Shown: in pieces, positions 1-47,468 of the stretch
Layout of the letters: every line of letters starts with the position of its first letter
Position numbering within the stretch: the stretch's first letter is position 1
DNA from: Massalongia carnosa
Taxonomy: Eukaryota
Assembly: GCA_965645245.1 (NCBI GenBank)
Contig: OZ287080.1
Span: 186,001 to 250,000 of the forward strand
Reading direction: 5' to 3'
Length of the DNA: 64,000 nt
Program-made: the position numbers and the translations under genes
Notes under the pieces: model-generated
What the model was told of the DNA's origin: nothing
The model's database searches: none
What the model saw: only the letters and a program-made list of their open reading frames with translations

Positions 1-244
1 GCAGATGGAATTGGCGGGGATGCAGCGAATGCGGCTCCAATCAACTGATTTGCATTACTAAGCTTCAAATAAAGGGTGCGATTCATGAAGACAGTGCCAA
101 TCGACAAATCCAATGTCTAGTAATCGATGGTTGAAAGCTGAATTGAATTTTTTCTTGAGGTGTCAATGTTGGGATGTGGACTGCTAGACCTAAAAGGGGA
201 AGAAGGCGGACGGGGCCGAGGAATCTACCCTACCTGGGCTAGCG

Positions 245-311
245 GTGTTTACCTAACCGGAGGTGGTGTTTATCTAACCGGAGGTGGTGTTTATCTAACC
301 AAAGTGGTGTC
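245..311. repeat. 21-bp tandem repeat, about 3 copies (GGTGTTTATCTAACCGGAGGT)
   Basis: Unit read directly three times; possibly the subterminal region of an element extending left of the window. Confidence 0.8.
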
Positions 312-1579
312 CTGTTATCCGTTCCCTATAAATATAGAGATCTCGAGATCGAGAATTACGTGTGCTACTGTGTAGGCTGTCAAAGAAACGAGAAATTGAC
401 ATATGAGATAAATAATTAAAATCAAGATATTTTCTCCGCTCTTACTTCGCAGTAAGAGGTTGCATCGATTTGTGTAACAGTATAGCGTAGCATCTACGAG
501 AGGTCTCTCACTACTCCGCAGAACTTGATCTCGCCATTAACCATTCTCCTCTGAATGGAGATAACACGTCTCTAGTGATCTATTCATCCACAATAGTGCA
601 TCATACGATACCCCAACGATCAAAGGATCAAGAAGGCAGAAAATCCGAAAGCTCAAGCATTTAAGGATCATGTGTCCCTAGGGAATTTTGGGTCAGCTCT
701 GGGTAATGCCCACATCCCTTCCGCAAAGAATTTGGTGTTCGGAAACCCTGAGCCACTCACTCACGGCAACTTTATCGACGCCAAAAAAGATCGGCGCTCG
801 CAGATGGGATGATGTTGGATGGTGATTATGCGGCTACTCCCATAGCAGTTTAATACGGAGTCTCTGACGGAAGACAACAACCTTTCGGCCACCTCCTAGG
901 CCCAAGGTAGTGCAACGATCCTCATCCCTATCGCTAACCCTAAATGCCTGAATTGCTGCAAGGTCGATGAATCTTGTGGGAACTTTGATTCGAGTTAGCC
1001 TTCGTGGCACAGTATGGGGGATGACCACAGGACATGCCTCTTCACAGAAGGCATAGTTCGCTAAAAGAGAGGAAGTGGATGTGTTTACTGAATGTGCTTG
1101 TCCTTGAACACGGATTGCTCGTAAGCGTGTGTCTTGATAGCTTGAAGCCGCTTTCCTAATGATGGTCAACTCAAGCACACTGAACATGAACCACGGGTAT
1201 GCCCGCTTTCCTGACGTCTGACTTTGCTTGACCGCGAGTCATGTGGATTGGAAGAAGAGGATAAGAGATAGGTTTATGGAGCTGCTGGCTTGAAATAAGA
1301 AAGATGGTTGTCAACAGAAGATGGTGTGGCCGAGGCGAGAAAGTGTTGGCAAGATGTGTGATGCTAAATTAGGGATCAGTTACGCGTCCAACGGCAGCTT
1401 ATTGGCAGAGCACAGTTTGTGATCATCACTTGTTGTCGACGATAGGGATTAGTCGAGGATGCATGACTTGTACGCGCCAACAATCAAGTCCTACCCCTCC
1501 TTCCAATGCATGTATCCTGAATCCTTTCTATTTTATTCCGCTAATGGAATATCCAAACCTCATTTTCACGTTGAGGCTA

Positions 1580-1970
1580 ATTACTGAACACGCGATCGAG
1601 CGGGGTCTCCAAAATCAGGAATGACAGGATGTCCGGGGGAGAAATGATTCGAAAAAGTTCTATTCTTAAAGATATGCAGCCTCATTTCTAGCTCAACGCC
1701 ATCGACCTTTTCATCTGTAAGAGCCTTGATCATAGTTAGCTCTTCGTCAGTCGCTAACTTCATGATAATCTGTTGCCCAGTTTCTGTATGCTCCTTGCTG
1801 ATGAATTCCCAGGCCACCTTGAAGAACTTCTCCATCTCCACAACTTGAAACCGCGCATTCTGTCTTGATATAAGGAACATCCACTCTCAGAAGCCAGTTT
1901 CGAGTTTGGTCTGCGGTCGTGATCTAGTGGTAGACTGTGATGGTTTTGTATTAACGCTGTTCTTACTCAT
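1580..1970 (-). pseudogene. 5' fragment of a fungal NFX1-type zinc-finger/AAA helicase (ZNFX1-like) gene
   Basis: FFKVAWEFISKEHTETGQQIIMKLATDEELTMIKAL, then in a shifted frame SLILETPLDRVFS, resembling the N-terminal region of fungal NFX1-type helicases; in-frame stop near 1890, a frameshift, and no helicase domain downstream. Recognised from memory only. Confidence 0.45.
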
Positions 1971-2541
1971 CACAGCTTCGTGCGAGAACTTGCACTACTA
2001 TCATTTAAAGTAAGACAAAGCTATAACTAGAAAGCACGAAAGATTATCACTAGAGGCAATGCTATGGTAAAGCTCTCTTCTAGTAGTGCAAGGCTCTTAC
2101 GGGGTTAGTTAGTGTCTTTGCATTTCAGTGTGTGCTGTCAACAGAGAATTCTTATCTTTTTGTTAACTGTTGATAATTGTTCGTGTCAGCGGCGTGAAAC
2201 ATCTGTTTTCTATTACGGTTTAGCTCGAATCCAGCGGAGTATTCAAGGATTTGATTCATCTTTCTTCTTCATTTAGCACCAGCACTTGTTATTAATAGAC
2301 TTCATCATTTAACTAATCCTCGGGTGACCCAAAAGTTCTTTTCTAACCCCCTCTTTCATGAGATCCTTTCCCGAAACCCCTCCTTATTTAAAATCCTGAA
2401 CGTCGTAATTGAAACATTTCATAGACTCATCCGTGTTTTACGATAAATTTTACACCCAATATAACGGAGACAAGCGTTTCGCGAATGAAGCTTTTCATAA
2501 AAGTTAAAGTTAAATATTATCGCTAAAGGGGGTGAGGACTA

Positions 2542-2812
2542 GTAGGGCTTTAAAAAGCGTAGGGATTGAAAGAGGGTAGGGATTTAAAGAGAGTAGGGAC
2601 TGAAAGATTGTAGACGTTGAAAGAGCGTGAAGACTGAAAGAGAGTAGAGAATGGAAGGGAGTAGGAATTCAAAAAGCATAGGAACTAGAAGAGAGTAGTG
2701 ACTGAAAGGGAGTAGAAACTGGAAGGGAGTAGGGACTGGAAGTGGGTAAGAATTAGACGAGAGTAGGGACTGAAAGGGAGTAGTGATTGAAAAGGAATAT
2801 GGACTAAAAAGC
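2542..2812. repeat. 17-bp degenerate tandem array, about 16 copies (consensus GTAGGGACTGAAAGAGA)
   Basis: Units start at 2542, 2559, 2576 ... 2797 with constant 17-bp period and divergent copies. Confidence 0.9.
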
Positions 2813-3714
2813 CCCAGTCATTTCAAAGCCTTGGGCGTTTTTCTTGGCTAGGGACTTTATTTCCCCAGAGCTTTTATTCTCCCAGGGCTTTCGTTTCCCT
2901 ACTCTTTTCGTTTCCCGAGGGAATGAAAGCCCTAGGAGAATAAAAGTCGTAAGGAGACATAACTCGTGGGACCAAACTCGTAGAATAAAATTCTTAAAAT
3001 ACACACCAAAATTAAAGCAAAAATCTAGATTAATCTAATTGTACTCCACGCCTCTTTAATTACTGATTGCCTTTCCTTTTCACTCGCTTTTTCCAAGTCG
3101 GTTCTTTTCTTCGCCAACCAGCCTACGGATGTCTTGATCAGAAACGTCAACAGTGCTCTTGAAGCAGCTAAGGCGTCAAATCCCATCTATGAAGTATTCC
3201 GGGGGACTTGTGTCGCGATCCGTACGCCCACAAGACTGAATCCGCTTACATGGCCGAACATCAACAGCGCGTGCGAAAGGAGACGAAAGATGTATCTCGC
3301 TGAAGTCGTGGACGCACCTCATACTTCTTTCCATCATCGTCGATAAGGGATGCTCTTCCATTCCGAAAGTGATTTAGCACGATTAGGGTAATTATTAGTA
3401 GCAATAAACACGTCATACGATTTTAACCGAAAAGAGTTTAATGTGCTGTTGGTAGTTGCATTACTAGCTTGTACGCACCCTGGATGAGCAGTGTTTACTA
3501 GCAAAGATTTACACAAGGGGGGACGGTCGGGGGGACTGTCCCTAAGCATCTGGGCTTGACGTATTCAGCCTTATGTGGATATCATTCAGCCCATTCAGCC
3601 GCGCAACAATAACAGCTTGACTGATGCTTTCTGTACCACTCATTTCCAAAGCCAGCCTCTGCACATTCCTACCAGGCTAGTTGTAAAAGTAGAAGAAAGC
3701 TAGGACCTTCTATC

Positions 3715-6700
3715 ATGCCAGATAAAGATTTATGCCTATTATCTCTTGACGGCGGTGGAGTGCGAGGGCTATCGTCACTCGCAATCCTCAAGCGACTGAT
3801 GGAGATCATCAATCCGGATGCGCCGCCGAAGCCATGCGAGTATTTCGACATGATCGGAGGGACAAGTACCGGTGGATTGATTGCTATCATGCTAGGTCGT
3901 CTTGAGATGAATATCGATGAATGTATCGATGCCTATGTCGCATTGTTCGATCAAGTGTTTAAAAAAAAGCCGCATCGTGTCACAATAAACGGACACGTGC
4001 AGGGGAGATTCGACACGGAAGAGCTGGAACGGTCGATTCGAGAAATCGTAAAGCGGAAGGAGAAGGCAGGGGAAAATGCTCTCCTCAAAGGATCAGAGAA
4101 TCAGCAATGCAAGGTGTTAGTGCTTCGGAAGTTGCATTTATACGTATAATTCAAGTGATACTAATGAAAGCTAGATTTGTATGCGCTCTGAGCAAAGAGA
4201 CTGCCGACACAGTCCTTTTCACATCGTATCCTTCTCGAGGATCATCAGATATGTATCATAAAACACGAATTTGGGAGGCAGCTCGAGCCACATCTGCCGC
4301 ATCATCCTTCTTTGATCCAGTTAAAATTGGCCAGTTTGAAGAAGAATTTGTCGATGGGGCTGTGGGGGCTAACAATCCTGTCGCACATCTTTGGAACGAG
4401 GCCAAAAGTGTGTGGTCAGATGAAGCGCTTGAGGGGAACATTAAATGCCTGATATCTATCGGTACCGGTGTTCCATCCTTGGATTCTTATGGCTCAAGCC
4501 TCTTCGAGATTGCAAAAGCGTTGAAAGACATTGCAACAGAGACAGAAAAAACAGCGGAGTCTTTTCATCGAGCGCATTCAGATCTCGACGATGGGAATCG
4601 CTACTTTCGTTTCAATGTTTCTCATGGGCTTGAGAATATTGGACTCGAAGATGCAGCACAGAAGAACAAGATCATGGCCACCACAACCCGCTATGTAGCT
4701 TTGGAAAGCGTGATGAAACAAATGAAGCTGTGTGGAAATAATTTTTCAACACGAGAATGTACGTCAATGTTGGCTTGATAATTCTTGAGTTACTAAATCC
4801 TTGAATAGACACTGGTTCATATAAAGTGCCATTCAGTTTGAAAGGCTTACCCCGTGTACCCAAATTCATAGCTCGTGATCAGGAGATGAATGACCTTAAG
4901 GAAACCCTTTTTCCCAAGCCAACTCGTGAGACTCGCCGGAAGGTGTTCGTTTTGCACGGACTTGGCGGCTCCGGCAAGACTCAGCTAGCAATCGAGTTCG
5001 CTCAAAGATCACAGAAGATTTTTAGTTCTATTTTTTGGCTAAACGGCGATAGCAAGGAAAGTGTACGTCAAAGTCTTGCACAGATTGCTCAGCAATTGCC
5101 CAAAGATCAGATACCGGATTCATGTAGAAAATTCTCTAAAATATCCCCTGAAGAGCTAAATGAAATTATTCGCAATATTCTTATTTGGTTCAATCAACAT
5201 GAAAACAATCAATGGCTTCTCATTTTCGATAATGTCGATCGTGATGATTCTCCTGAGGTAAATGATCCTCAATCATATGATGTGAAAGATTTTTTCCCGG
5301 GAGCCGATCATGGCTCTATTTTAATCACAAGCCGATTACGACAGCTTCGACAACACGGGCAGGACCAGCAACTTGGAAGGATGAGCGATCTACAAGGAGT
5401 AGAAGTATTACGATGCAGGATAGGACGATCAGTTGAAGGTAATGAAATTTAAGCAACAGTCTTAATCCAATTTACTAAGCATTATATAGGCCTTGATAGG
5501 ATCGTCGAGAAAGTGGGTGGTCTCCCACTTGCACTTGCTCATGCAGGCTCCTATATCCACGGAACGACTACAAGTGTGAAAGACTATATTCGATACTATG
5601 AAGAGACTTGGGAGAAGCTTCACAACAACAAAACGACTCGATTAAAAGATTATCCTCGTAGCATTTTATCTACGTACACCATTTCCTACGAATATGTGCA
5701 ACGCAATGACGCGAGCGCTGCAAAATTGCTTAATCTGTTTGCATATCTCGATCATTCAGATTTATGGTATTCTTTATTCACACCTGTACTTGACAGCATT
5801 ATCTCAAAAGAGACATTACCTATCTGGTTTTCATGTATCATGAAGACGGAATTTGATTTTACACAGAAGATTCAAATACTGCTGGATTACTCCTTGATAG
5901 AAACACGATATGAGATCTCATCTTATGCGATTCATCCAATTATACATGACTGGTGTTTTCACTTGAATCTAACCTCTAACGACGAGATAGCTTCTTTAGC
6001 AGTTTCTGTAATCGGTTCCGCATGTCATTCCACTGACAGTTCAGCAAACTGGCTGCATCGAAAACGACTGGCTGGTCATTGTAGTTATGTTCACTTCTGG
6101 ATTGGAAAAAAACCTCAAAACCTCGAAAGGAACATGAGATGGGAACAGGTGTTATATTTTTCGTATTATGATATTGGCTATTTTTCAAACGAACAAGGCA
6201 AGCTGAAAGAGGCCAAAGAGATGTATCTGCGGGCATTGACAGGATACGAAAAGGCCAGAGGTCCTGATCACACATCAACGCTCGATATAGTCAACAATCT
6301 AGGAAATTTGTATAAAAATCAAGGCAAGATGAACGAGGCCGAAGAGATGTATCTGCGGGCATTGACAGGGTTCGAAAAGGCCTGGGGACCTGATCACACA
6401 TCAACGCTCGAAACAGTCAACAATCTAGGGCGTTTGTATGCAGATCATGGCAAGATGAACGAGGCCGAAGAGATGTATCTGCGGGCATTGACAGGGTTCG
6501 AAAAGGCCTGGGGTCCTGATCACACATCAACGCTCGAAACAGTCAACAATCTAGGGGGTTTGTATGCAGATCATGGCAAGATGAACGAGGCCGAAGAGAT
6601 GTATCTGCGGGCATTGACAGGGTTCGAAAAGGCCTGGGGTCCTGATCACACATCAACGCTCCACACAGTCAACAATCTAGGGCGTTTGTATGCAGATCAA

Positions 6701-9334
6701 GGCAAGATGAACGAGGCCGAAGAGATGTATCTGCGGGCATTGACAGGATACGAAAAGGCCTGGGGTCCTGATCACACATCAACGCTCGCCACAATCAACA
6801 ATCTAGGAATTCTGTATAAAAATCAAGGCAAGATGAACGAGGCCGAAGAGATGTATCTGCGGGCATTGACAGGATACGAAAAGGCCTGGGGTTTTGATCA
6901 CACATCAACGCTCCGAATAGTCAACAATCTAGGAAGTCTGTATGCAGATCAAGGCAAAATGAACGAGGCCGAAGAGATGTATCTGCGGGCATTGACAGGG
7001 TTCGAAAAGGCCTGGGGTCCTGATCACACGTCAACGCTCGCCACAGTCAACAATCTAGGAATTCTGTATAAAAATCAAGGCAAGATGAACGAGGCCGAAG
7101 AGATGTATCTGCGGGCATTGACAGGATACGAAAAGGCCTGGGGTCCTGATCACACATCAACGCTCCACACAGTCAACAATCTAGGGCTTTTGTATGCAGA
7201 TCAAGGCAAGATGAACGAGGCCGAAGAGATGTATCTGCGGGCATTGACAGGGTTCGAAAAGGCCTGGGGTCCTGATCACACATCAACGCTCGGAACAGTC
7301 AACAATCTAGGGCTTTTATATGCAGATCAAGGCAAGATGAACGAGGCCGAAGAGATGTATCTGCGGGCATTGACAGGGTTCGAAAAGGCCTGGGGTCCTG
7401 ATCACACGTCAACGCTCGAAACAGTCAACAATCTAGGAATTCTGTATAAAAATCAAGGCAAGATGAACGAGGCCGAAGAGATGTATCTGCGGGCATTGAC
7501 AGGATACGAAAAGGCCTGGGGTCCTGATCACACATCAACGCTCGGAACAGTCAACAATCTAGGGCTTTTGTATGCAGATCAAGGCAAGATGAACGAGGCC
7601 GAAGAGATGTATCTGCGGGCATTGACAGGGTTCGAAAAGGCCTGGGGTCCTGATCACACATCAACGCTCGGAACAGTCAACAATCTAGGGAGTTTGTATG
7701 CAGATCATGGCAAGATGAACGAGGCCGAAGAGATGTATCTGCGGGCATTGACAGGGTTCGAAAAGGCCTGGGGTCCTGATCACACGTCAACGCTCGAAAC
7801 AGTCAACAATCTAGGGCGTTTGTATGCAGATCATGGCAAGATGAACGAGGCCGAAGAGATGTATCTGCGGGCATTAACAGGGTTCGAAAAGGCCTGGGGT
7901 CCTGATCACACATCAACGCTCCACACAGTCAACAATCTAGGGCTTTTGTATGCAGATCAAGGCAAGATGAACGAGGCTGAAGAGATGTATCTGCGGGCAT
8001 TGACAGGATACGAAAAGGCCTGGGGTCCTGATCACACATCAACGCTCGCCACAGTCAACAATCTAGGAATTCTGTATAAAAATCAAGGCAAGATGAACGA
8101 GGCCGAAGAGATGTATCTGCGGGCATTGACAGGATACGAAAAGGCCTGGGGTCCTGATCACACATCAACGCTTGGAACAGTCAACAATCTAGGGCTTTTG
8201 TATGCAGATCAAGGCAAGATGAACGAGGCCGAAGAGATGTATCTGCGGGCATTGACAGGGTTCGAAAAGGCCTGGGGTCCTGATCACACGTCAACGCTCG
8301 AAACAGTCAACAATCTAGGGCGTTTGTATGCAGATCAAGGCAAGATGAACGAGGCCGAAGAGATGTATCTGCGGGCATTGACAGGGTTCGAAAAGGCCTG
8401 GGGTCCTGATCACACGTCAACGCTCGAAACAGTCAACAATCTAGGGCGTTTGTATGCAGATCATGGCAAGATGAACGAGGCCGAAGAGATGTATCTGCGG
8501 GCATTGACAGGGTTCGAAAAGGCCTGGGGTCCTGATCACACATCAACGCTCCACACAGTCAACAATCTAGGGCTTTTGTATGCAGATCAAGGCAAGATGA
8601 ACGAGGCCGAAGAGATGTATCTGCGGGCATTGACAGGATACGAAAAGGCCTGGGGTCCTGATCACACATCAACGCTCGCCACAGTCAACAATCTAGGAAT
8701 TCTGTATAAAAATCAAGGCAAGATGAACGAGGCCGAAGAGATGTATCTGCGGGCATTGACAGGGTTCGAAAAGGCCTGTGGTCCTGATCACACGTCAACG
8801 CTCGAAACAGTCAACAATCTAGGGCGTTTGTATGCAGATCATGGCAAGATGAACGAGGCCGAAGAGATGTATCTGCGGGCATTGACAGGGTTCGAAAAGG
8901 CCTGGGGTCCTGATCACAAATCAACGCTCAACACAGTCAACAATTTAGGAAGTCTGTATAGAAATCAAGGCAAGATGAATGAGGCCGAACAGATGTGTCT
9001 GCGGGCATTGACAGGATTCGAAAAGGCCTGGGGTCCTGATCACACATCAACGCTCGCCACAGTCAACAGTCTAGGAATTCTGTATAAAAATCAAGGCAAG
9101 ATGAACGAGGCCGAAGAGATGTATCTGCGGGCATTGACAGGGTTCAAAAAGGCCTGGGGTCCTGATCACACGTCAACGCTCGAAACAGTCAACAATCTAG
9201 GGCGTTTGTATGCAGATCAAGGCAAGATGAACGAGGCCGAAGAGATGTATCTGCGGGGCTCAAGCGGCTTACCTGTGCCAGGTATGACAATTCTAGGCAG
9301 GACAAGGCCTGATGACATATTCAACGTCGAATGA
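3715..9334 (+). CDS. Fungal NLR: patatin-like phospholipase - NB-ARC - TPR array; exons 3715-4115, 4175-4758, 4809-5438, 5490-9334
   Basis: Patatin motifs LSLDGGGVRG, GTSTG, DGA; NB-ARC Walker A GLGGSGKT, Walker B WLLIFDNVD, GSILITSR, GGLPLAL; three GT-AG introns (4116-4174, 4759-4808, 5439-5489) with branch-like CTAA sites join the ORFs in frame (CKV/FVCA, TRE/YTGSYKVPF, VEG/LDRIVEKVGG). Confidence 0.95.
6194..9256 (+). repeat. Coding TPR tandem array: 24 full 126-bp (42-aa) units plus a partial 25th
   Basis: Units from 6194 to 9218 (3024 bp = 24 x 126); consensus QGKMNEAEEMYLRALTG(F/Y)EKAWGPDHTSTLxTVNNLGxLY(AD/KN). Confidence 0.97.
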
Positions 9335-9507
9335 AATCAAATCAGTACCGTCTGAAAGCTAGTTGAATCTTGCTGGCAATGGTGCAATTGGAATTCTATA
9401 GTTCAGTTGAGAGGGAACTTTAATGTAAGGGGCGCAGGGGCGCAAGGCGTACGGGGGAAGTTTAAATTTCTTGGCATCTTGTCTCGCTGTGCCAAATCGG
9501 ATCTAAT

Positions 9508-9609
9508 AGGAATTGAAAGAGAGTAGGGATTAGAAGGGAGTAGTGATTGAAAAGGGATAGGGACTAAAAAGCCCCAGTCATTTTAAAGCCTTGGGCATTT
9601 TTTCTGGCT
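9508..9609 (+). repeat. About 100-bp direct-repeat copy of 2745-2849
   Basis: GGGAGTAGTGATTGAAA...GGACTAAAAAGCCCCAGTCATTT(C/T)AAAGCCTTGGGC present at both places in the same orientation. Confidence 0.9.
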
Positions 9610-10206
9610 GAAGATATCATGTTTCAAAGGAGTTTAATATCGATTTTTAATATTGCTACTATTGTACATAACGGTCTAGATAGTGGCCCCAAGGATAAAA
9701 CCATTATCTCTGACTTCATGTGTGTTGCGCCGAGATGCTCTCCATCTATAACGCGGTACATGTATGATTTAGGCAGCCATGTTAGATGAATGTTAGATGG
9801 AGGCAGTAAGGTCAGCATACCCACGATTGCCCCCGAAGTGAGTGACCCAAGTCTGACCTATCCATGGCTGATGATCTGGTCCGTGATGCTGAGTCTTTAG
9901 ATAGAAGGGACATTGTACGTATACTCCTAGGGTATCCCATTCGGTCGCTGTTGCAAATGGTACGGTAGCCATGATTTTGAAGACGGGATGTTGCGAGGGA
10001 GTAGAGGAGCCGAAATTGGGAGCTAGAGCGATACGAGAGTTGATGCTGATGATGACGCAGCAGTCATAGGCTACAAGGAGCGAAGAATCCATAAGAACCC
10101 GAGATGGTCATGAGACTTACCATTCGACGCATTGAAAACAGCAGAAGGGTATGATATTAGTCAAGCTCGATGCCGAACCGAAGGTTTTCTATGGGGAGGC
10201 AACTTA

Positions 10207-12480
10207 TTATGGCCGCTCGTAAGGTGGTGACCTCAAGAGGAATTTATGTAACCAATCTGCACGCAAAGGCCGAATGACAGTCAAGTGGGTGTCTTGTGAA
10301 CCAAATCCGCATGGTTCTGCAAGTGCATTGTGCTTGTCAAAACATCTTGACACCTTGGATGAAGGCATGCGATCGGATGACCGTCTTGGTGATGAGGAAG
10401 GTGTTTTACAATGGAAGTGCTTTTTCAGATCGTAGCGGCTGTGGAAAGACTTCAGACGTGTCTCGGTGGGTAGCGCTACACAGCCGAGGCAAAAGATACA
10501 TTGAGTGGGTTCGCATTCAATCGGGATGGAGTCTGAAAGAGAGGCCGGATCGAGGACAGATGGTGGTGTCAGATGCCGTTCCTTGATGACCGACGCGGAA
10601 AGTTTTGAACGACGTGGACGCTTGCCTTCCTGCAAGCGACAAAGGGCTGTCAAAGCATTGATCTCTTCCACCCGCCGCTTGCACTCTTCCTCTGAGGATG
10701 ACGTCGCGAAGGTGAGGAGGTATCGATGACCCGGACACGCTCCTCGAAGACGTAATCCTCTGCCTTCGCCGTCTCCAGTTCTTCCGACGGCAGTCCTTTC
10801 AGCTTTCGTTGAATGTCGATCACCGGCTGCTCCCTCTTATAGCTCGCTTTGACCTCTTGTAAAAGAGCCTCCTCTGCCACCGTTTTATGTTGCGATGAGC
10901 TTGATACGCCTTTTGGTACTTATCGTATACTGATGTCCCCTTCATGCTCGCGATGGGTCCATGATTGTCTTTGATGAACTGGAACATTTTCTTTTGCCTC
11001 CGGCGAAGGAGTCTCACCTCTGGGTGACGATCGACCTGGGCTTTTTGGGCGTCATTGAGCTTCCGAGGCCGTCGTCGATCAATCGTACGACTCATTCCAC
11101 TGGCGAGCCGCATCAACGCATTTTACGGCTTCAAACCACGATAGGCGGCCCCGGTATCACTTGTGATATACCTCGAGAGATAGATTTTTAAGAACACGGT
11201 GGAGTTATGATGTTGCAAAATCAGATTCCGTTGCGATTCGCTGATGAAGCCTGTGCAAGGGTCAGCGAAAAGCTCAAAAGAAGATTGACAGAGGTCGTGT
11301 TACACACTTGCTGTTGTCGAGAGCTTCGCTATTGCCGCGTCGAAAGATGTATGAACCGGTGGGAAGCTTCATGCCGGTGACGCTTCCAAGGGTTATCATC
11401 CGTGAGCGAAGAGTACTATCAGGCAGAGCTTTGTCATCCGAAATTCGAACTCCGTTCACGGTGAATTCGGATCGGCGGAAGAGGAGAACATGTAGCATCG
11501 TTTCCTTAAGGGGAAACGGCAGCTGTTTCTGTCCCGGGGGGATCCGGAGACGGAATAATTGTTCGGCAGAAATCAATTCGGGAGCGGCGAAGGCCTGAAC
11601 GTTAAAGATCAAAGTGAGTAGGTTCAGACGAGGACAAAGCAGCAGCCATGGTTCGTCAGGCTCGTCAGGAATCCTGAACTCATTTCTATGATACTTGTCA
11701 GTCGTTCAGCGAAACTGTCCGTCTCGACGAAGAAAGCACAAAAGGGCAACATGGACGTTTCTCTATCGCCTAATAACCCTTCGTATTCTTGAATGCGATT
11801 TCAATCAACCGTCGAGGAAGCTCCCCTCCTTCGAGATCCGGAAGCAAGGTGATCTGAACATCTTTGTAGCACACACCCAAGAGGGCAGCAGGACGGTTGT
11901 CTGTGATTCCGGCTAGCTGCATGATCAAGGCTAGTTGTACACGGTGCCGCTCGTGATCAAAGACGATCTCGACGAAGTCGTCCTCGGCCCGCATGATGAG
12001 CTTCTTCTTCTTCTTCTCAGTCCTTAACCCATGCTTTAGAGCGAGCCGTTGTCTCGCCTAGTACTGGTTAATCAATAGAGGCGTAGCGGGGCTCTCGTAC
12101 CCCGTGCATCTGGCTTTTGATAAGCGGGTCGATCTCTAGACAGCCAGTCTCTTTCTTTCGCACTAGACAAAAAATATTCCAGAATGTTTGCAGGGTACGA
12201 GTACTAGCCGCACTCAGCCGATCTTTTCGAATGGAGAGTAGCCAGTCGAAGAAGACGTAGAGGATGTTGATAGAGATCTCCTTGAGAGTCATGACGGGGT
12301 TCTTCCTAGTGAATTCGCAATATCTGTCAGCCTCGATCAGATTTCGCCAGTCCACGATAGTCGTAGTAGCATCTCCTTACCGATACCAAAGGTTCTTAAT
12401 CCAGCTCGATAGATCCTCGCTGCTATCCTTGTAAACTCGTTCAGGGAAAATTAGAGTCGACGAGCGTGGATGATAAGTGA
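10207..12480 (-). pseudogene. DUF3435 tyrosine recombinase (Starship captain-like), multi-exon, frameshifted
   Basis: WIKNLWYR/YCEF (intron 12324-12380), FFDWLL, FDHERHRVQLALIMQLAGITDNRPAALL, NTKGY, YIFRRGNSEALDNS, QRNLILQHHNSTVFLKIYLSRYIT, GMSRTIDRRRPRKL, C-terminal CEPTQCIFCLG zinc-finger-like region; frameshifts and small deletions; start codon not located. Confidence 0.85.
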
Positions 12481-13369
12481 TCGACGTGAAGGAGGGACGG
12501 CGAAAATAGAAGTGGGAGAATAAGAGGGTTGGAAAGGCGAAGATGAAGGGTAGAGGGACACGAAGAGAAATGTCGTCAGAGACGATGGGAACGGAGGGGA
12601 AGCTGAGCAGAACAGCCGATCCTGGAGGTCGGGGGGCACGATGAAATAAATACCAGGTGTCGGACAAGGACCATGAGGACCAGCTGAGTGATGATGCTTG
12701 AGGCATGACACGCTCGACGTGGTGAGGTGATGCGCAAGAGCGACCGGGGACGGGCAGGGCGGCGGGAAAAATCGAGCAATATAGAAGCTGAAACAAATAA
12801 TGTGAAGAGAGAAGCTGCAATTTATGATTTGAAAGTGGAGGACTGAGCGCCTTGAGGTCTACTTTCGCGTTAGCAAGTGCGTTCTCGACGTGCGAACTAG
12901 CTAACTTATACATATGCGTTTGAGAAGAGAGTTTTGATATGTGGCTTTTAGATGACAGACAATCTTTAATTATATTATCTTATAGTATTCCTCACAGTCA
13001 TGAAGATGAGAGATGAACCACTGCATTTCATTTCAGGCTTGTTTTCTCTGCCCACAAAAAGGTCAGTAATGTTTTGATCTCGAAAATATAGGCACACATT
13101 AACTCACTTCTCAATGACTCTTAGAGGCCATCTCTTCTATGTTTGCTAATAAATAACACACCAGACTGTAACTAAATAACAAGGGTATTTACATTGATAT
13201 ATGACCTCGGTATAATCACACATGTTAAGATGAAAGGCAGCAGAAACGAGATTAAAGAATCTAACAACCTGGCGAGAGATGGAAGTGCTTCTGAAGGAGA
13301 GAGAGTTTAAATAGACTTTGCATATACGGCGAAGAAAGCCTCTTTCTATATGCTTTCCGATCTCGTTCT

Positions 13370-13950
13370 CCAGACAAAGTCATCATCCTGCGCCCCTAAT
13401 CTCAACAGAGCAGAATACATAGTCATCGCAAATTCTTGTCCAGAACCCCTCCAGCAATAGTGAGCTGCATACTTTATACTAGTCAGTAGATGTTTCATGA
13501 CTAAAATCATTGGCAGACGTAAAGAAGACCGAACCCATAGGGATCATAATCCCATAAGCTGCCTTCACAGCGAATCAAAGTATCATGTACGCCACAGATG
13601 TCTCCGTTGAGGACGTACATGAAAACCAGGGAACCATACGGTCTTGGGCAGATTGGAGCTGAATTTCGGGTGAAACAGGCCTCCGGTGATAGAGCAGCAG
13701 TGACGCACATATCCGCTTGAGAATCTATAAAGTCCTCAGTTTGAAACAAGATCATCAATCTGGAAGACTTTGTAAACCCTAAACCTGCTAACAGCCGCGA
13801 AGGATGTCCTTTGATGTCAGAAATTGATCTATCTGATTGACGGATGAATTCTGCTTGCTCTGAGATTGAGTTGTCGAAGAGTGAGATAGCCGATGGAGGA
13901 TATTGTCTATTACAATGTATTTCAACTCTGCTTTCTCTGTAGGCCATGAT
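13370..13950 (-). pseudogene. Decayed fungal gene fragment, possibly ankyrin-associated
   Basis: GSLWDYDPYGFGLLY spliced to YAAHYCWRGSGQEFAMTMYSALLRLGAQDD resembles a degenerate ankyrin-like segment; frame breaks upstream. Confidence 0.35.
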
Positions 13951-14177
13951 CTCGCGGTGGAATCATCCTGCAACCTTCAACGAAGCGACTTTGAAACAAA
14001 GGACACTCTTTGGAACTTGACGTTTCTTCTTGATTTTAATCCTTATATTTGTTTTTATGATCCTTGACTGGCTACGAGTTATTGATGAGGGCTTAAAGTG
14101 TTTAGAATACTCGCTTAGCCCCATTAGTTCTAGCTCAGCCCTGCAGGCTGCCATGACTGCTTAGTAACCCGAAGTTG

Positions 14178-15176
14178 TAATCGTCGGCCTCGCTTAGCTG
14201 CCTCCATACGAGGTGTACCACCTCTAGTCGGGGAAAGCGGTCTGCGTAGGCAAGCGATCTGCATAGTTTCAATTTCAGTTTACCACCTATTTTGCAGCTT
14301 TTTGCGACACTTCTCGACCGCAACCTACGACCATTAGCTATTATTATTCATACCATAGATATCAACTGCACATCCTAACTGCTCATTTATCAACCGGGAA
14401 TGCATTATATTTTTTCCAATTTCACCAGTTTTATCACCTATTTACAACTCTTTGCGATGCCGTCTCATCATGATTTTCAACCTCCATTTGCTTTATTTTC
14501 AACCTCATTTGCAAATATTATTAATAAGTAGATATATATCAATTGCGCGTTCTAACGATATCCCCCTTGATAAAAGTTAAACTGCTCATCCTCATCACCC
14601 TCATCACCTTCATCATTCTCATCCTCATCACCCTCATCACCCTAATCATTCTCATTATTCTCATCAAAAGCTATGAAGTTTGTCTGCTCGCGAATAGAAT
14701 CATCTTCTATAAGTCGTAGACTATCATCACCTATAGTATCCGTGATGAATTCGATCTCATCCCTATCTTCATCTGTCTCATCTCCAGTCTGCCCTTTCTT
14801 CTTTCTTGCCGCCTCCTTCCTCGCCTCCTCCATCTTCCAAATAGAGTTTGTCTTCTTCCATTCTGCTTCGGGATCTTCAATGGGAGTCAGCTTATCAATA
14901 GGAATGATGACGCTTGCCTGTCGAGCTCCTTGACTTGCTTTTGCCGAACTCTTTCATCTTTTCGCGCAGCAACTCCCTTGATGTGTATAGCATTACGTTC
15001 CATTCGCCATATTCTCATGTAATTGTTGTGCTCCTTTCTTCTTTCCTCTCGTTCTTCTTTTTCTTGCTTTTCGGCAATGACTCGTTCTGCATCCTCCTTT
15101 GTGAGTCCTGACGCCTCCGAATAGGTAGATCTTATCTACACCACGTATGGAGGCAGCTAAGCGAGGCCGACGATTA
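14178..15176 (-). mobile_element. About 1-kb non-autonomous Fot1/pogo-type deletion derivative
   Basis: About 40-bp inverted ends TAATCGTCGGCCTCGCTTAGCTGCCTCCATACG(A/T)GGTGTA including flanking TA; interior encodes only the transposase C-terminus, homologous to 30000-30680. Confidence 0.88.
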
Positions 15177-15637
15177 TTCTCGCGCAGCGAGATGATTTTT
15201 TATTTTGAAGCAATTTAAACCGCCAAATAGAGCATCCTTCAACGAGTAAACCCGTGCCTGAATTGTCTGATTTGATGTGCTATGAAGTGTAGGATCGCCG
15301 TGCAAAACCGACGCCCTGCTTGGCCCTGGTCGTTGCGAAAGTCGACATTTGCGCTTCGCAATCGAATCACAAAGGGGTTTTGCTAGAGTTTGAAACTGGG
15401 TTTGCTGAAGAGAGCTTCTTCTGAATAGAAGAAGCATCTTACCCCGAGTAGAATTAACGTAGCGCTGATGGCGCGATACGTGATGCGGTTGCACGCCTCG
15501 TCACAAGATGTCCCACCCAGTCACAGGAACGAGAAGAAGGTACTACGGGCACATTACGAGCGATCGCTTCTTAATAGAAACGATGTTACAGGCCTCCATG
15601 ACTAGTACTCGTAGAGAGAAAGAAAGGTATCATTGAC

Positions 15638-18446
15638 CTATCTACGAAGCAGATCCTCTCCAGCGTCAATACGCTTAGAGATCTGATGTCCAGAGAACCC
15701 CAAACTGTTAACTTCCCGCGCAATATCCCACGAATCCCTCCCCTGCTCATTCGCCTTCCCCTGAAGATACCGACGGATCCGTCTTTTGACGTAGAACCGC
15801 TGCCTCATGGCAGGAGTGTACCTCCACTTAGCCCAGAAGAGGTGGTCCAACTCGTCGAGAGACGTACGCCGGACCACCTCCACCAACGTATCCACCGCGA
15901 ATTCCTCCAACACCGCCTCCGTCGAGGTCACGCCGCAGAGAATGGGCTCCGCCAGGCAGTCAGGAGGACGTTGAGGCGGCCCCTCTTGGGGGAGGGAGCC
16001 ACAGGGCGCAGAGACCGTAGACGCCTCTCGACGCTACCTCGATCCTTTCTGACGGTTCCTGTGGAGGCTGTTTGGAGGGACTGGCTGCTGGACGAGGCTT
16101 CTCGGCGAGGGCAGGCGACTGCTCTTGCGACGGCGGCACATTCCGTTGGTGAAGAGCCTGCTGCGTCGGCGTACTCGTACGTCGACGCAGCCGCTTCTCT
16201 CCTTCCTACACCTTCTGTCGTCCTCACTTCCGTCCCCGGAGACCGTGGCCTGCAACTGTGAGAGCTGCGAACCCAGGACTCGAGCTATCTCCTAGGCATT
16301 TGCCGCCGGCAGCGCACTCAAGATGGTCGTTAGCTGGCTCTGCCCGGAGAGCAACCTCTCCACAGCGTTGAGCGTGCGATCTTGCTTGATCGCAACACCG
16401 CTGACCTTATTACTGACGCCATCAACGGAGTCAGCAACAAGAGACAGCACGCCGTGGATGGCCACGTGCAAAGGTTCCTTTTTTACGGCCTCCAACTCCC
16501 GTATCTTCGCCACGAACGCAGGCCAAAGGGGATCTCTGAAGACTTGGTGTCTCCAGAGTGAAAGCTCAGGAAACTAAGGCTGTAGAAACGCCGCTTCTTG
16601 CAGGAAGACACAACGCAGCCGCAGCAACATCTCCAGAACCTCCTTCACTGCCTTATCCGCATCAGGAAAAAGACCGCCTTTGTACGCCGCCAGAGCATCA
16701 TCCACCCAAGGCCACACCTGCCGCTGCAGGGCCAGATCCGGTGAGTGTCCTCCTCTTCTCAAAAAGTAACTCCCGGGGGAGTTGCCAAAGCCGGCGGCGC
16801 GACGCATGTAGACACGCGGCAGGCGGGTGAGGTAGTTAGTGGCCCAGACGCCACGTTCCCATCCGCCTGCTCTCATGATCTTTAGTAGTTGGTATAAGGG
16901 TAATGCTAGTAAGTATAAGGGGCCATGAATCATAGAGTACTTGCCTGGTCCGCGGGGACCTCTCACATGTCGGCCAGCCGTGACGAGGACTGCCGCATGG
17001 TGTGGACCGTCTTGGAGCTGTCGACGCCGACAGCATCCAAAGCCGGCTTAATCCAACGGGCCTATGTTTTGTCGGAGATTTTCTCCTTAGATCGCGCCAG
17101 GCTCCCGGAGATGAACTTCGTGAAATATCACGAAGATCGATCTCGGAAGTCCGGCCGCTTCTCTAGAAGGAGGTCCTAGCGCAAGACGAGCCAATGGGCG
17201 AGGGCGCCGAGAGGACAGAGGACGACATCTCTGCTCCGCAAAGCACCATGATAATGCTGACGGCGCGAGTTGCCCCCGTCCGCCAGAGGAATGCTCTTCC
17301 CCTGGCCAATTCGAAGGATCAACGCAAGGCATTCGGACCCCTCGTTAGGAAGGTCGTAGGCGCAGAGGTCAGGTAGCTCAGCCCTTCGCGTTGACTTCCC
17401 CCGCAGCATCATCGAATGCATTAGAAGGAAGTCGAGGCGAGTCCGCAGAAGATGCCACTCGCCGCCCGCCACGCCCTCCTCCCCCAAAACCTTGCCCCCG
17501 GCGAGCAGCATTGCCGAAAATTGAGCGGCCTGCTCAGTCGTGCAGCCGTCGGTGAGGCCGTGGATCGCGCGATCCTCGAACGAGGCTCGCTTGAAAGCGC
17601 TTCAATCGATGCGTAAGCGCGTCATCAGGGCTTGATGACCTTCCCTCTGGGATGGGGCACCACCAAATTCTCTCCGAGATGCTGATCATCGAAGAGGACG
17701 CAGAGGGCAGAGACGTAGCCCGATTCCACGCTATCGGGCGCCAGGGGTCGGGATAAAGGATCGTCGGCTTGCTGCAAGACGAGTCAGTAAGCTACAAAAA
17801 GATGATTCTATTCCTGAATTCGAGTTCAGGGGGCGACTCACCGTCTCAACGAGCTCCTCGCCGTCGGAGAATTCCTCGAATTTTTCCACCTCCTCCACCT
17901 CCTCTCCCTCTACCGCTGGCGAGGCTTCCACCGCCTTCATCGCCTTCCCCTTCCCCCTCTTCAACGCGCGGCGCTTAGCTTGCCGTTGGCGATTCTGATC
18001 CCGTCGCCTGGCCTGCGCTGCTGCGCCTGTGAGCTTGGGACGTGGGACGAAGCGCAGGCGGAGGACGACCTCTTCGAGGAAGAGGAGCATCTTCCGCTCC
18101 CACACAAGGACGCCGTCAGGAAAATTGCGACGTCGGCACCACTTCTGTAGGATGTTAGCGTAGGCCCAAATTTGCAGGGCATACCTATCGTAGTCACCTC
18201 CCACATATGCCAGCACTTGCGGTACGTCTTAAGGGTGTTGGCCCTCCGATCCTCCTCCCGCATCCCGCGGACGCGCCTCATGGTGACGGCCATGGCGGCC
18301 TTGTTGTTGCCGTGGGTGGCATAGGCCTGAGACTCATGCTTGACGGCGTCGACATCAACGTAAGCCTCAGGAGGAGGCCAAGAAAGAGGCGCGGCCGTCT
18401 CCAGATCTGCGACAGCTGGGCCTGCAGCGGAGGGGCCCGGGTCCAT
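15638..18446 (-). mobile_element. Crypton-type tyrosine recombinase gene (Ndc10-II-like YR domain + GCR1_C-like C-terminus), intron-containing, degenerate
   Basis: LRTRLDFLLMHSMMLRGKSTRRAELPDL, IGQGK, GALRSRDVVLCPLGALAHWL, LLRLRCVFLQEAAFL, and SLDELDHLFWAKWRYTPAMRQRFYVKRRI; GC-rich block; element termini not identified. Confidence 0.8.
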
Positions 18447-18817
18447 CGTGCGGCCGCCAAAGAGGGTATCCGTGGTATGTAGAACGCTAGTTGATCAGCA
18501 AGTCGCTCGCGGCGCAAAACGGGGACAGGCAGGCTTTTTGCAGTTCGACTGAGTGGGTCGAGGAGAGAAAATCGTGGTATGGAGCTTCGTCACGGGCGTT
18601 ATTGTCCATATACAATACCTCCGTACAGCGTGACGATTTTGCAGGGTCACGCCTACATGTGGGTTTATACCCCAAAGTCACAGGCGATAAGGCCACTTTG
18701 CGAAGGACCGCCAAGCCAGCATTTTTTACGCTAAATCTCAACCTCGCGGCCCCAAAAAAAAATCGGCCTCGGATAAGCAGTTCACCTCCGTTGTAATTTC
18801 AACATTATGCCGTCAAC

Positions 18818-21800: not shown

Positions 21801-22972
21801 CTTTCCACCCACACTCCGTCAGGAATCTTTGCGGATGCTCTTGTCGTTCGCAGCATATTTCGGGTTTGAAATCGAGCAAATGGATGTTCCGAATGCCTAT
21901 CTTAAAGCGGATTTAGAAGAAGAAATTTACATGCCCGAAGGCCTCACGCCACCACCAGGCTATGAAGACTGCGTATTATGACTACGGAAGGGCCTTTACG
22001 GATTGAAGCAATCCGGACGAGAGTGGAACAAACGAATATCTAAATTCCTGCGTTCTATTGGCTATAAGACCCTCACAGGCGATAATTGCGTCTTTGTCGA
22101 CCAAACCTCGCACATAATCATCGCGTTGTACGTAGATGATTTACTAATTTTCTCAAAAAGCAAGAAGCAACGATCAGTGGTTACGTCAACCATGGAGGTA
22201 GAATATTCATCCATGTGCCAAGCAGGCAAGGATATCGTATGGGTGACAAGGTGGATGAATGAATTGGGATTTGGCAAGCATATGAACTTCCCGATCAAGC
22301 TGAACGGTGATAATCAGGGAACCCTCGACTTGATCAGAAACCCCGAGCATCATAGCCGATCAAAACACATCGACATCCAATTCCACTACCTTCGCGAAGT
22401 CATCAACGATGGCTATGCTTCAACCGGTCACGTATCCACAAATGAGATGATAGCTGATGTATTCACCAAGCCCTTGGGAGCAACCATGTTCAAAGAACTA
22501 CGAGCCAAGCTTGGTGTGCAAGAAGTGGAATAAGAAAAGGGGAACACAGGCTCGGTGGGAGCTAATGGACCAAATCGGATTGCACACAACAGGTCCAAAC
22601 CAAATTCAAATTGCATACGGAAGAGGTGAATTGACATAGATTGATAAACGGTTTAGGAGTTAGGGATACAGGTATATTTTCTGTTAAGATTTCTCAGCTG
22701 ACTTTGCAGTGGGAGTGTTGCGAATGCCAAGCCAGCTGGATCATATCTGATGCAATATGCGAATGCCTTCGCGTATTTTACTGATATGGGAATAGTTACA
22801 TCTGAGAATTTCTGGAATCTTCGATGCTTAGAAATTCAGATCTATAGACGTTCGAGGAGAATCTCGAATGTTCTGTGATCAACATGTATATAACATCACT
22901 CCTACGCATAGCCTAGAGATCAGTCGCAATAATCTGAATTATTTCATCCATGCTCAGGCCATCAATAAAACA
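18818..22972 (+). mobile_element. Ty1/Copia LTR retrotransposon remnant, internally deleted
   Basis: TGTT...AACA LTR-like segment 18818-19004 followed by PBS-like GGTTACGAGCCC; gag-PR-IN-RT-RH order; PPT-like AGTGGGAG followed by a TGTT...AACA segment 22716-22972. Confidence 0.9.
19079..22533 (+). pseudogene. Copia gag-pol polyprotein, frameshifted and deleted
   Basis: CDHCGKLGHIRIYC knuckle, WMLDSGASRHM protease, LWHARMGHP, TPEQNGVAERYNR integrase, LYVDDLLI RT, SKHIDIQFHYLRE RNase H. Confidence 0.93.
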
Positions 22973-41346: not shown

Positions 41347-41785
41347 TGTCAAGGACTGGGCAGGGGATTGAACTAATGTTCCTAGGAATTGGATTGGGTG
41401 ATCAAGATGTCTTTATTAATAAGGCTATAGCTAGGTGATGGATTGCTATACAAGACGTCGGACAAGGAGTCAACTATCTAAGTAACTTGTCCTTCCATTT
41501 ATATTTGTCTCGAACCCCTTTGCATGAAGATTCGATCAGTGTTCATCTCCCCCTATTATGAGACGTACGGCACGAAGGTTTGACGAGGTGTTTGACGATA
41601 AAAGGTGGAGATGAGGTTCTCCTGTCGTTGGTACGCTTTGATACAGCTTTGACCTGAAGCCGTTGAGAGGGGTCTAAACTCGATTTAGTAAATGAGATTC
41701 TGACTAAGCTGAATAGAGGAACGGGAGCTTAGTCAGATTCATCTGCGGGATTGATTCTGGATCGGGTTGGTTCGATTTCATGACA
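41347..41785 (-). repeat. Gypsy 3' LTR
   Basis: TGTCAAGG...CATGACA, near-identical to 47469-47916. Confidence 0.95.
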
Positions 41786-41825
41786 GTAGCTCCCCTTTCA
41801 AGAGCTGAGCTCCTGCGAAGCAGTT

Positions 41826-47398: not shown

Positions 47399-47468
47399 GA
47401 TGGTGGAATATGAGGGGGGACAGGGGCTAGTGCTATGAAAGGCACCTTTCGATGTAGGTCCGACGTAA

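Follow-up and report, generated by a model that had tools for sequence, protein, structure and literature searches.

A decaying Starship-type captain beside an intact patatin-type NLR gene in a putative Starship-like region of a lichen-forming fungus

Introduction

Starships are giant transposons through which, it has been proposed, fungi acquire and swap accessory genes; in active elements, the captain cuts and rejoins the element ends. They were first shown in lichen fungi in 2026. NLR and PLP genes are recurrent auxiliary genes of Starships, and the cargo can outlive a decayed captain (PMC9156397; PMC13486527).

In Xanthoria lichen fungi, Tangerine was described together with 16 other "orphan" tyrR genes; no boundaries are given for the orphans, which are noted as lying "several within 100 kb of PLP or NLR" (PMC13486527). 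The Tangerine family of captains is characterized by its place in a Lecanoromycete-specific clade of the captain tree and by a core-binding domain that is short or missing (PMC13486527). The locus analyzed here, in a 64-kb window (the whole stretch of DNA under analysis), resembles Tangerine in its lichen-forming Lecanoromycete host and in holding the NLR and patatin-like type of gene that counts as auxiliary there (PMC13486527). For Tangerine, the ends are mapped, an empty site is known, and the body spans 85-102 kb (PMC13486527), whereas no boundary was found in the window. Both in Tangerine and in the relatives compared here, the captain lies near the 5' end, at distances of 1,390 bp (PMC13486527) and 400-489 nt, respectively. 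The Tangerine captain is a 283-aa protein that has no core-binding domain (PMC13486527), whereas the pseudogene in the window matches relatives of 658-679 aa from residue 29.

The Starship-like regions of Macrophomina phaseolina are defined by colocalization of DUF3435 with DUF3723, FRE, PLP, and/or NLR genes and by the lack of target-site duplications (PMC9156397). This definition fits the window locus, which from its predicted genes can be classed as a Starship-like region whose captain is dying, rather than as a demonstrated Starship. The same source describes Derelicts, which are similar in that cargo persists past captain decay; they have no DUF3435 and retain several conserved cargo genes, whereas the window holds a near full-length captain remnant and one candidate cargo gene (PMC9156397). 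In the Starship Wallaby, the captain is likewise probably a pseudogene with premature stops in an otherwise recognizable element, but the boundaries of Wallaby are curated, unlike those of the window locus, where none were found (PMC11162782).

Results

A DUF3435 pseudogene tail to tail with an NLR gene

Three minus-strand pieces of the window matched DUF3435 (PF11917; 7.7e-35, 4.4e-17, and 4.2e-16), and tblastn with full-length relatives aligned residues 29-679 of these proteins, in several frames, to 12460-10284 at 54-67% identity per segment (Table 1). All four intron positions are common to the relatives. The DUF3435 matches, the coverage of residues 29-679, and the common introns thus support a tyrosine recombinase of the Starship captain type. 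The pseudogene retains the N-terminal region that matches residues 29-130 of the relatives and ends at an ancestral TGA stop at 10283-10281; its start codon and first ~28 residues were not recognizable. A profile of 12 related captains gave 0 matches to PDB sequences at E values up to 1.

A single nonsense codon interrupts the captain, together with four 1-nt frameshifts, in agreement with a sequence-only reading of this DNA, which had described a frameshifted, dead DUF3435 captain on the minus strand. Among the breaks in the reading frame, the four frameshifts and the TAA codon are real, whereas three frame changes and an in-frame stop at 12377-12379 are intronic. The tail-to-tail arrangement with the NLR gene also holds, but the gap is 946 bp from the ancestral stop rather than ~870 bp, since the latter figure had been taken from where a shifted frame ends, at 10207. 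RIP was rejected as the cause of captain death because the RIP indices, judged by the usual thresholds, were negative everywhere (composite -0.51 to -1.14).

The NLR gene runs from an ATG at 3715 to a stop at 9332-9334. Its coding sequence of 5457 nt contains zero frameshifts and forms a single open frame, as expected of the intact gene proposed earlier. Pfam searches identified Patatin (1.1e-15 and 2.4e-08), NB-ARC (7.5e-07), and TPR_12/TPR_10 (1.9e-258 and 1.8e-234) domains, corresponding to a patatin-like phospholipase, an NB-ARC, and a TPR array. A Pseudocyphellaria aurata protein (P0023) aligned over its residues 1-542 without gaps at 82% identity, which supports the start and splice sites of the model; residues 1-799 of a Vezdaea protein (P0026) aligned at 66.5% identity, and a further homologue (P0021) has 94% identity. 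An NLR of the patatin-NB-ARC-TPR type is expected to show GGGxRG, GxSxG, and DGA/G motifs, followed by the P-loop, Walker B, and GLPL motifs and C-terminal TPR repeats. In the translated model, the patatin motifs read DGGGVRG, GGTSTGG, and FVDGAVG, and the NB-ARC motifs read GLGGSGKT, LLIFDNVD, and GGLPLAL. The predicted product is accordingly of the fungal patatin-NB-ARC-TPR (PLP-1-like) type.

PLP-1 has the full order patatin, NB-ARC, TPR, and sec-9 is linked to plp-1. PLP-1 recognizes SEC-9, whereas a Pfam screen of the NLR flanks and spacer (20 small ORFs, curated cut-off applied) revealed neither a SNARE nor any further Pfam domain, and so no sign of a linked target gene, among ORFs of at least 60 aa in the 3.7 kb upstream (1-3700) or in the spacer (9335-10280). 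The sole match listed for these ORFs was a sub-threshold ZP-C (E=0.0047; 17.5 bits vs a cut-off of 24.6). The likeness to Neurospora crassa PLP-1 lies in an NLR with a patatin-like phospholipase domain; PLP-1 oligomerizes, its patatin domain is required for cell death, and C-terminal sensor domains carry out recognition (PMC10197012). The inner units of the TPR array in the window share 89-96% identity with the reference unit, and highly conserved repeats shuffled by recombination are described for fungal NLRs (PMC10197012).

Table 1. Positions of the features discussed, numbered from the first nucleotide of the 64-kb window.
Feature	Position	Strand	Details and evidence
Minisatellite upstream of the NLR gene	2525-2809	+	17-nt unit
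Direct repeat of ~105 nt	2747-2849 and 9507-9609	+	87% identity; repeat search, self-blastn, alignment
Intact NLR gene	3715-9334	+	1819 aa, three introns; single open frame by splice search
NLR exons	3715-4115, 4175-4758, 4809-5438, 5490-9334	+	
NLR introns	4116-4174, 4759-4808, 5439-5489	+	GT..AG
TPR repeat array in the NLR	6065-9391	+	25 units of 126 nt (42 aa); repeat search, Pfam TPR_12/TPR_10
Spacer between the two stop codons	9335-10280	.	946 bp
Spacer segment with homology to the nearest related captains' 3' flank	10122-10280		nhmmer, 10341-10122, E=1.6e-25
DUF3435 tyrosine-recombinase (Starship captain type) pseudogene	10281-12460	-	Pfam, tblastn, reading against homologues
Captain introns (four)	12380-12324, 12100-12058, 11756-11686, 11305-11251	-	
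Captain nonsense codon	11125-11123	-	TAA
Captain 1-nt frameshifts	near 11772; near 10875; 10718/10719; A-run 10407-10404	-	
Remnant of the captain upstream region	12440-12647	-	nhmmer E=4.1e-09
Stretch of the expected 5' terminus (about 12.9 kb)	12648-12990	-	G+C profile
OTT_1508 deaminase	40147-40764		outside side of captain

Related captain loci and the origin of the NLR

For comparison, 60 related captain loci were collected from lichen metagenomes. A sharply conserved 5' terminal motif was present 400-489 nt upstream of the captain in 19 of the 27 eligible non-redundant loci, and the DNA outside this motif was unrelated and AT-rich. Loci L043 and L044 are 98.7% identical; their collinearity runs from the 5' boundary through 10 kb or more of downstream DNA and does not extend to the upstream flanks. 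A crude tblastn screen found many of the related captains to be stop-rich (0-46 in-HSP stops; one or fewer in 9/40 loci), and this screen is noisy because the HSPs read through introns.

We counted NLR-like ORFs, defined as those bearing TPR_10/12 or DUF7779, at those non-redundant loci whose flank spans 3 kb or more. A convergent NLR-like ORF lies downstream of the captain in 7/34 loci (L006, L009, L020, L025, L029, L037, and L045), and in five of these it starts 1.3-2.6 kb from where the captain match ends. None of the TPR type was found upstream (0/24), although the contrast is weakened because the flanks that serve as the upstream control are rich in AT and contain few ORFs (50 ORFs in 221 kb vs 142 in 298 kb); L040 has one NACHT-Ank NLR upstream of the captain. 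Both captain and NLR sequence are held in common by L029, L045, L006, and L020. These counts agree, for the TPR type and for related captains, with the statement in the sequence-only reading that NLRs are recurrent cargo, and the captain's orientation on the minus strand, reading leftwards, places the window NLR on the cargo side, as had also been proposed. Because the relatives behave like cargo carriers and an NLR recurs downstream of them, the interpretation of the window NLR as former cargo gains support. It is not the same cargo as theirs, since the relatives' NLRs match it from residue 332 onward only, at 26-48% identity, and have no patatin domain.

Alternatively, a cargo-less or stripped captain copy of ~2.5-3 kb might by chance adjoin a resident NLR that was vertically inherited and never mobile, which we consider possible, if rather unlikely. 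At the DNA level, the window resembles the 60 relatives only within the captain module (10255/10271 to 12441/12444 by blastn; 10122-12647 by nhmmer), most related pairs lose similarity 3-500 bp past the captain stop codon, and L001, on a 1.44-Mb contig, is followed downstream by TatD and DUF3433 ORFs. All of this would be expected of a captain traveling alone, as would the difference in NLR type between the window and the relatives, and the well-conserved full-length homologues in other lichen fungi (82% and 66.5% identity) would also fit a vertically inherited host gene. The window is moreover transposon-dense throughout (copia, gypsy, Tc1/pogo, and MULE), it shows one candidate cargo gene, any others having to lie beyond it, and the short direct repeat brackets the NLR alone, its copies lying 6760 bp apart with the second inside the spacer. 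Chance adjacency has to contend, however, with a convergent NLR at so short a distance on the cargo side, an arrangement shared with the seven relatives and seen for the TPR type in none of the 24 upstream flanks, and with the joint copying of captain and NLR in L029, L045, and L006. Nor is the 3' terminus of such a compact element definable in the relatives: no inverted copy of the 5' terminal motif occurs within 10 kb downstream at the 60 loci, and the downstream-flank alignment shows mosaic haplotypes and no common 3' end.

The element and its surroundings

Among the features by which a Starship is recognized, the window holds a DUF3435 captain gene, as a pseudogene, and a cargo-type patatin-NB-ARC-TPR gene; defined ends (direct repeats or a target-site duplication, with or without TIRs) were not found in it. 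The start of the element had been placed to the right of ~12.5 kb, and this fits the upstream homology, which extends to 12647 and matches positions 303-472 of a 580-position model of the relatives' 5' ends, as well as the drop in G+C at 12900 from 0.48-0.56 to 0.30-0.38, but no boundary was found. The relatives' terminal motif was undetected in the window by nhmmer (best match elsewhere, E=8) and absent from 12.4-13.6 kb in a fuzzy search. A hint of a degenerate motif near 12.87-12.89 kb in a MAFFT alignment was weak and non-significant and was not counted. The window likewise contains no empty site and no 3' end that we could find. The left end of the element, which the sequence-only reading put beyond the window, would lie outside it.

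The captain could also be a secondary insertion in a larger, older Starship or accessory island that owns the NLR, although this appears quite improbable. Such an island would be consistent with the transposons that fill both sides and with the 64 kb in which no clearly housekeeping gene was seen, and genes of classes that are cargo in the relatives, such as the OTT_1508 deaminase, occur on the outer side of the captain as well. Transposon nesting within Starships is reported (PMC13486527). Nothing positive marks an outer boundary, however; tblastn with five relatives, which matches 10284-12460 only, gives no second DUF3435 copy in the window, and neither DUF3723 nor ferric reductase was found there. 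Because the deaminase is merely about 30% identical to a relative's cargo deaminase, it was rejected as cargo common to the relatives. An ORF at 13510-13962 matched only unnamed Ascomycota clusters and some with ankyrin in the ESM Atlas, and was uninformative.

Captain alleles in other sequencing runs

We compared 20 kb of the window with Logan contigs of four of nine sequencing runs, X1, X3, X6, and X7. The whole 20 kb is carried by X1, X3, and X6 at about 97-98% identity (29/30, 30/30, and 30/30 bins covered, respectively). Bins without coverage were given no weight; these comprise 7338-8004 in X1 and nearly all of 1-11156 in X7, where the depth was 0 except for 0.18 (bin 2002-2668) and 0.62 (bin 10673-11339). 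One base is missing at 10404 in X1 (226.2/226.2 of the depth), X6 (37.2/37.2), and X3 (7535.7/28120.1), and an extra G occurs at 10718 in X1 (174.3/174.3), X6 (52/101.4), and X3 (29952/41907.7). Read against the homologues, each of these alternative states leaves the frame open. Two of the four captain frameshifts are thus absent or mixed in three data sets, so that the decay is recent and still segregating, and it is real.

Homopolymer assembly errors in a captain that is in fact intact are scarcely credible: the two frameshifts visible in the runs do sit in short homopolymers (A4 vs A3, C2 vs C3), but window-like alleles also make up ~73% of the X3 depth at 10404 and about half of the X6 depth at 10718, the X7 contigs show 0 differences and 0 gaps across 11157-19040, the NLR coding sequence is free of frameshifts, and the TAA codon and two further frameshifts remain.

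An empty site, for which the earlier interpretation called, did not emerge from these runs, as none of the 15 joints listed (of 74) for the four bypasses the captain or the NLR. In X1, X3, and X6, the captain, the NLR, and both flanks are all present together, with no presence/absence difference. This common locus fits the proposal that the NLR has been fixed in place.

Discussion

The captain relic beside the NLR suggests that the receptor once travelled as cargo, and we consider it plausible, on balance, that the NLR belonged to the captain's element. The locus would then be what is left of a Starship-type giant transposon in a lichen-forming Lecanoromycete, with the captain at the 5' terminus of this element, near 12.9 kb, reading leftwards, and the PLP-1-like NLR as the first gene on its cargo side. 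In NLRs of this kind, the TPR repeats sense a ligand, the NB-ARC oligomerizes, and the patatin lipase executes cell death. The captain has acquired the nonsense codon and the four 1-nt frameshifts and has lost the 5' terminus, while the NLR was retained intact. As the captain is dead, the segment would no longer be self-mobile. Both the arrival of the NLR as cargo and its present status as a fixed host gene are what we infer from this arrangement.

A dead captain beside an intact NLR is an already known kind of relic and overturns no current view. The locus does provide a concrete, datable case of cargo outliving its vehicle, in which the frameshift alleles are polymorphic, and it adds to the evidence for fungal immune-type receptors traveling with Starships.

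More speculatively, and in our view improbably as a whole, the observations could be combined into a Starship-borne NLR in the course of domestication, left by a captain lineage with a conserved 5' end and a recurrent convergent NB-ARC-TPR NLR as its first cargo gene. If so, captain and NLR would form a module in which the receptor may serve the element, for example via allorecognition or addiction, and is later kept by the host; the recombinase would be vanishing via segregating frameshift alleles while the PLP-1-like NLR stays intact. The conserved 5' terminus can be used as an annotation marker for this captain lineage in fragmentary lichen metagenomes, and it makes the captain-NLR association testable in long-read genomes. 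In this lineage, the 5' end would be marked by a GGGGACGGC-type motif lying ~450 nt upstream of the captain, with an AT-rich TTATAAATTTTA-like site before it.

The NLR gene and the captain pseudogene

We identified a single open NLR frame of 1819 aa by a search across nearby GT/AG pairs; another third intron gave 1820 aa. In Pfam searches the protein showed Patatin and NB-ARC domains together with a very extensive TPR_10/TPR_12 stretch; the TPR part comprises 25 tandem 126-nt units (inner units 89-96% identical). The model matched the homologous proteins P0023 (Pseudocyphellaria aurata, residues 1-542, 82%, gapless) and P0026 (Vezdaea aestivalis, residues 1-799, 66.5%, 3 gaps), so its start and splice sites can be trusted. 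The essential motifs were all found, namely GGGxRG, GxSxG and DGA in patatin, and P-loop, Walker B and GLPL in NB-ARC. Judged from its sequence, the gene is intact. Like Neurospora PLP-1, whose full domain order is presumably the same, it is an NLR with patatin at the N terminus. PLP-1 is reported to oligomerise, to recognise ligand through its C-terminal sensor domains and to need the patatin domain for cell death (PMC10197012).

A 17-nt minisatellite (~17 units left, ~3 right) followed by a ~105-nt segment flanks the NLR on both sides (2525-2849 and 9489-9609). The short direct repeats (2747-2849 and 9507-9609) are 87% identical and 6760 bp apart; no further copy of the minisatellite and ~105-nt repeat was found elsewhere in the window.

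The sequence-only reading had described a dead DUF3435 recombinase beside an intact NLR, which we confirmed. Three minus-strand pieces matched DUF3435 (Pfam). A 143-aa piece led to full-length relatives of 658-679 aa in Heterodermia and Teloschistes (64% identity to the piece), whose residues 29-679 were covered between 12460 and 10284 in tblastn. Reading the DNA against these homologues gave five true lesions, with neither a start codon nor the first ~28 residues recognisable; the in-frame stop at 12377 of the earlier reading is intronic. The former stop is the TGA at 10283-10281, which leaves 946 bp to the stop of the NLR. RIP indices were negative in 12 of 12 regions tested across the window, pseudogene included, unlike published Xanthoria genomes, where RIP is strong in repeat-rich regions. 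The recombinase is judged to have decayed through small mutations, not RIP.

Related captains and the element ends

An alignment of 12 related captains, used to scan metagenome contigs, yielded 60 loci, or 40 after removal of 20 near-identical duplicates. Window DNA matched the 60 over the captain only (10255/10271 to 12441/12444; best identity 74%), and profile searches widened the homology to 10122-12647. Related copies in unrelated AT-rich flanks have a common sharp 5' boundary. Of 27 eligible non-redundant loci, 19 (24/36 including duplicates) carry a conserved terminal motif, 400-489 nt upstream of the captain, which provides a usable marker for this captain lineage. The terminal sequence (e.g. 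L043:9549-9640, L029:9526-9620) combines a core of the GGGGACGGC type with a small hairpin. It follows an AT-rich stretch resembling TTATAAATTTTA, and the two perhaps reflect a target-site preference.

Two loci with 98.7% identity, L043 and L044, are collinear from the 5' boundary for at least 10 kb downstream, bar one 2.65-kb indel, and their upstream flanks are not collinear. At least some relatives thus form large units that have the captain at their 5' end. No 3' end was identified, even among the related loci. A second, partial captain copy lies beside the first in some loci, inverted in L042/L047 and L050 and tandem in L038/L039.

Model position 303 falls at 12627, and extrapolating from this upstream homology places the expected 5' end in the window at ~12.9 kb, near which G+C falls from about 0.5 to 0.30-0.38. 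Profile, fuzzy-motif and alignment searches did not detect the terminal motif in the window; it is likewise missing in 8 of 27 relatives. The DNA left of the NLR's surroundings lies beyond the window edge.

Opposite-strand downstream NLR-like ORFs (TPR_10/12 or DUF7779; Pfam, 142 ORFs) occurred in 7 of the 34 non-redundant loci that had 3 kb or more of flank (L006, L009, L020, L025, L029, L037, L045), starting 1.3-2.6 kb past the captain match end in five of the seven. The seven represent no fewer than four distinct groups, since sequence is shared among L006, L020, L029 and L045. Other downstream ORFs carried HET, HeLo, SIR2, ankyrin, PNP_UDP, DUF676, OTT_1508 deaminase and DUF3723 domains. 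Among 50 upstream ORFs (24 loci), one NACHT-ankyrin pair in L040 and one DUF3723 in L006 were found, and TPR-type NLRs were absent; this contrast is suggestive only, because the upstream flanks are very AT-rich and ORF-poor. The relatives' NLRs matched the window NLR only from residue 332 onward (26-48% identity) and lack patatin, so they are not the same gene.

In Gluck-Thaler et al. 2022 (PMC9156397), a Starship is defined by target-site duplications and a 5' DUF3435 captain; where PLP or NLR genes accompany DUF3435 and such duplications are lacking, the region is termed 'Starship-like'. The authors also describe cargo outliving a decayed captain. According to the starfish paper (PMC11162782), the upstream boundary is usually <2 kb from the captain, and many captains may be pseudogenes. 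The Tangerine paper (PMC13486527) presents Tangerine as the first lichen Starship described, with NLR and PLP auxiliary genes, and reports 16 further orphan tyrR genes of Xanthoria without boundaries, several near PLP or NLR genes; the window locus is of this latter kind.

The earlier proposal that the NLR is Starship cargo is partly supported, by the dead captain, the intact NLR on the cargo side and the recurrence of this arrangement in relatives; neither a boundary nor an empty site nor co-mobility was demonstrated at the locus. We cautiously favour the reading that the NLR is former cargo at the relic 5' end of a Starship. A captain relic beside a resident NLR, disfavoured by the recurrence in relatives, is possible but less likely, and a nested situation is improbable.

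Neighbouring elements

Pfam searches of 32 long ORFs indicated a fungal, transposon-dense window with polyproteins of copia and gypsy type, NDC10_II-domain ORFs and several transposases (Tc1/pogo/MULE); none of the 32 was clearly a housekeeping gene. Lichen-forming Lecanoromycetes were the source of the best protein matches for both NLR and recombinase. The NDC10_II-bearing insertion is possibly a Crypton-type tyrosine-recombinase element.

Features of the locus and its surroundings (window coordinates)
Feature	Position	Strand	Remarks
NLR gene	ATG 3715, stop 9332-9334	+	
NLR introns	4116-4174, 4759-4808, 5439-5489	+	GT..AG ends, branch-like motifs; explain breaks between ORFs
Recombinase introns	12380-12324, 12100-12058, 11756-11686, 11305-11251	−	DNA read against homologues
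Lesion	near 11772	−	1-nt frameshift
Lesion	11125-11123	−	TAA replacing Gln
Lesion	near 10875	−	1-nt frameshift
Lesion	10718/10719	−	1-nt frameshift
Lesion	10407-10404	−	1-nt frameshift in A-run
Insertion into repeated sequence	14162-18781		4620 bp; G+C 0.54-0.59
MITE-like element	14178-15176		~1 kb; 40-nt terminal inverted repeats, 98%
NDC10_II-domain ORFs	16577-17601	−	inside 14162-18781 insertion
Copia-type gag-pol	19043-22530		
OTT_1508-like deaminase domain ORF	40147-40764		transposon-rich part right of captain
Gypsy-type element	41347-47918		LTRs 41347-41787 and 47469-47918, 96.7% identical; open pol frame 1346 aa
Collagen triple-helix repeat ORF	52694-53848		transposon-rich part right of captain
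3CxxC zinc ribbon ORF	55271-55771		transposon-rich part right of captain

The locus in other sequencing runs

Seven public runs held part of 3600-13500, and four (X1, X3, X6, X7) were compared over 1-20000. X7 showed zero differences from the window over 11157-19040 (depth ~2; almost no depth left of 11157) and is probably the same individual. Its contig beginning at 11157 has a 24-nt loose end resembling a SMART-type cDNA primer, which does not amount to transcription evidence.

X3, X1 and X6 stem from three studies and differ in organism label (organism B, 'lichen metagenome' and organism C). They covered 30, 29 and 30 of 30 bins over 1-20000, respectively, with long pieces ~97-98% identical to the window (15 differences and 1 gap in X1 record 3, 10929-11830). 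X1 record 4 (12766-13760) spans the expected 5' end, and X6 record 18 (9870-10466) connects the spacer with the captain. Given this coverage and these linking pieces, NLR, captain and both flanks co-occur in all three. No joint skipping captain or NLR was present among the 15 listed of 74 joints (four runs, 1-20000).

The substitutions and indels listed (40 of 566 and 12 of 67, respectively) showed variation between runs at two of the four frameshifts. Relative to the window, a base was absent at 10404 (all depth in X1 and X6; 7535.7/28120.1 in X3) and a G was additional at 10718 (all depth in X1; 52/101.4 in X6; 29952/41907.7 in X3). Both alternative states, in our reading of the frames, keep the recombinase open. 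The decay of the captain is therefore a recent event and still segregates. The window alleles are not assembly errors, because X3 and X6 also have them, and misassembly is a most improbable account of the frameshifts.

One X3 contig links 14179 to 15178, a form without the MITE-like element, and contigs of X3 (5), X1 (2) and X6 (1) join 14161 to 18782, leaving a few letters in between.
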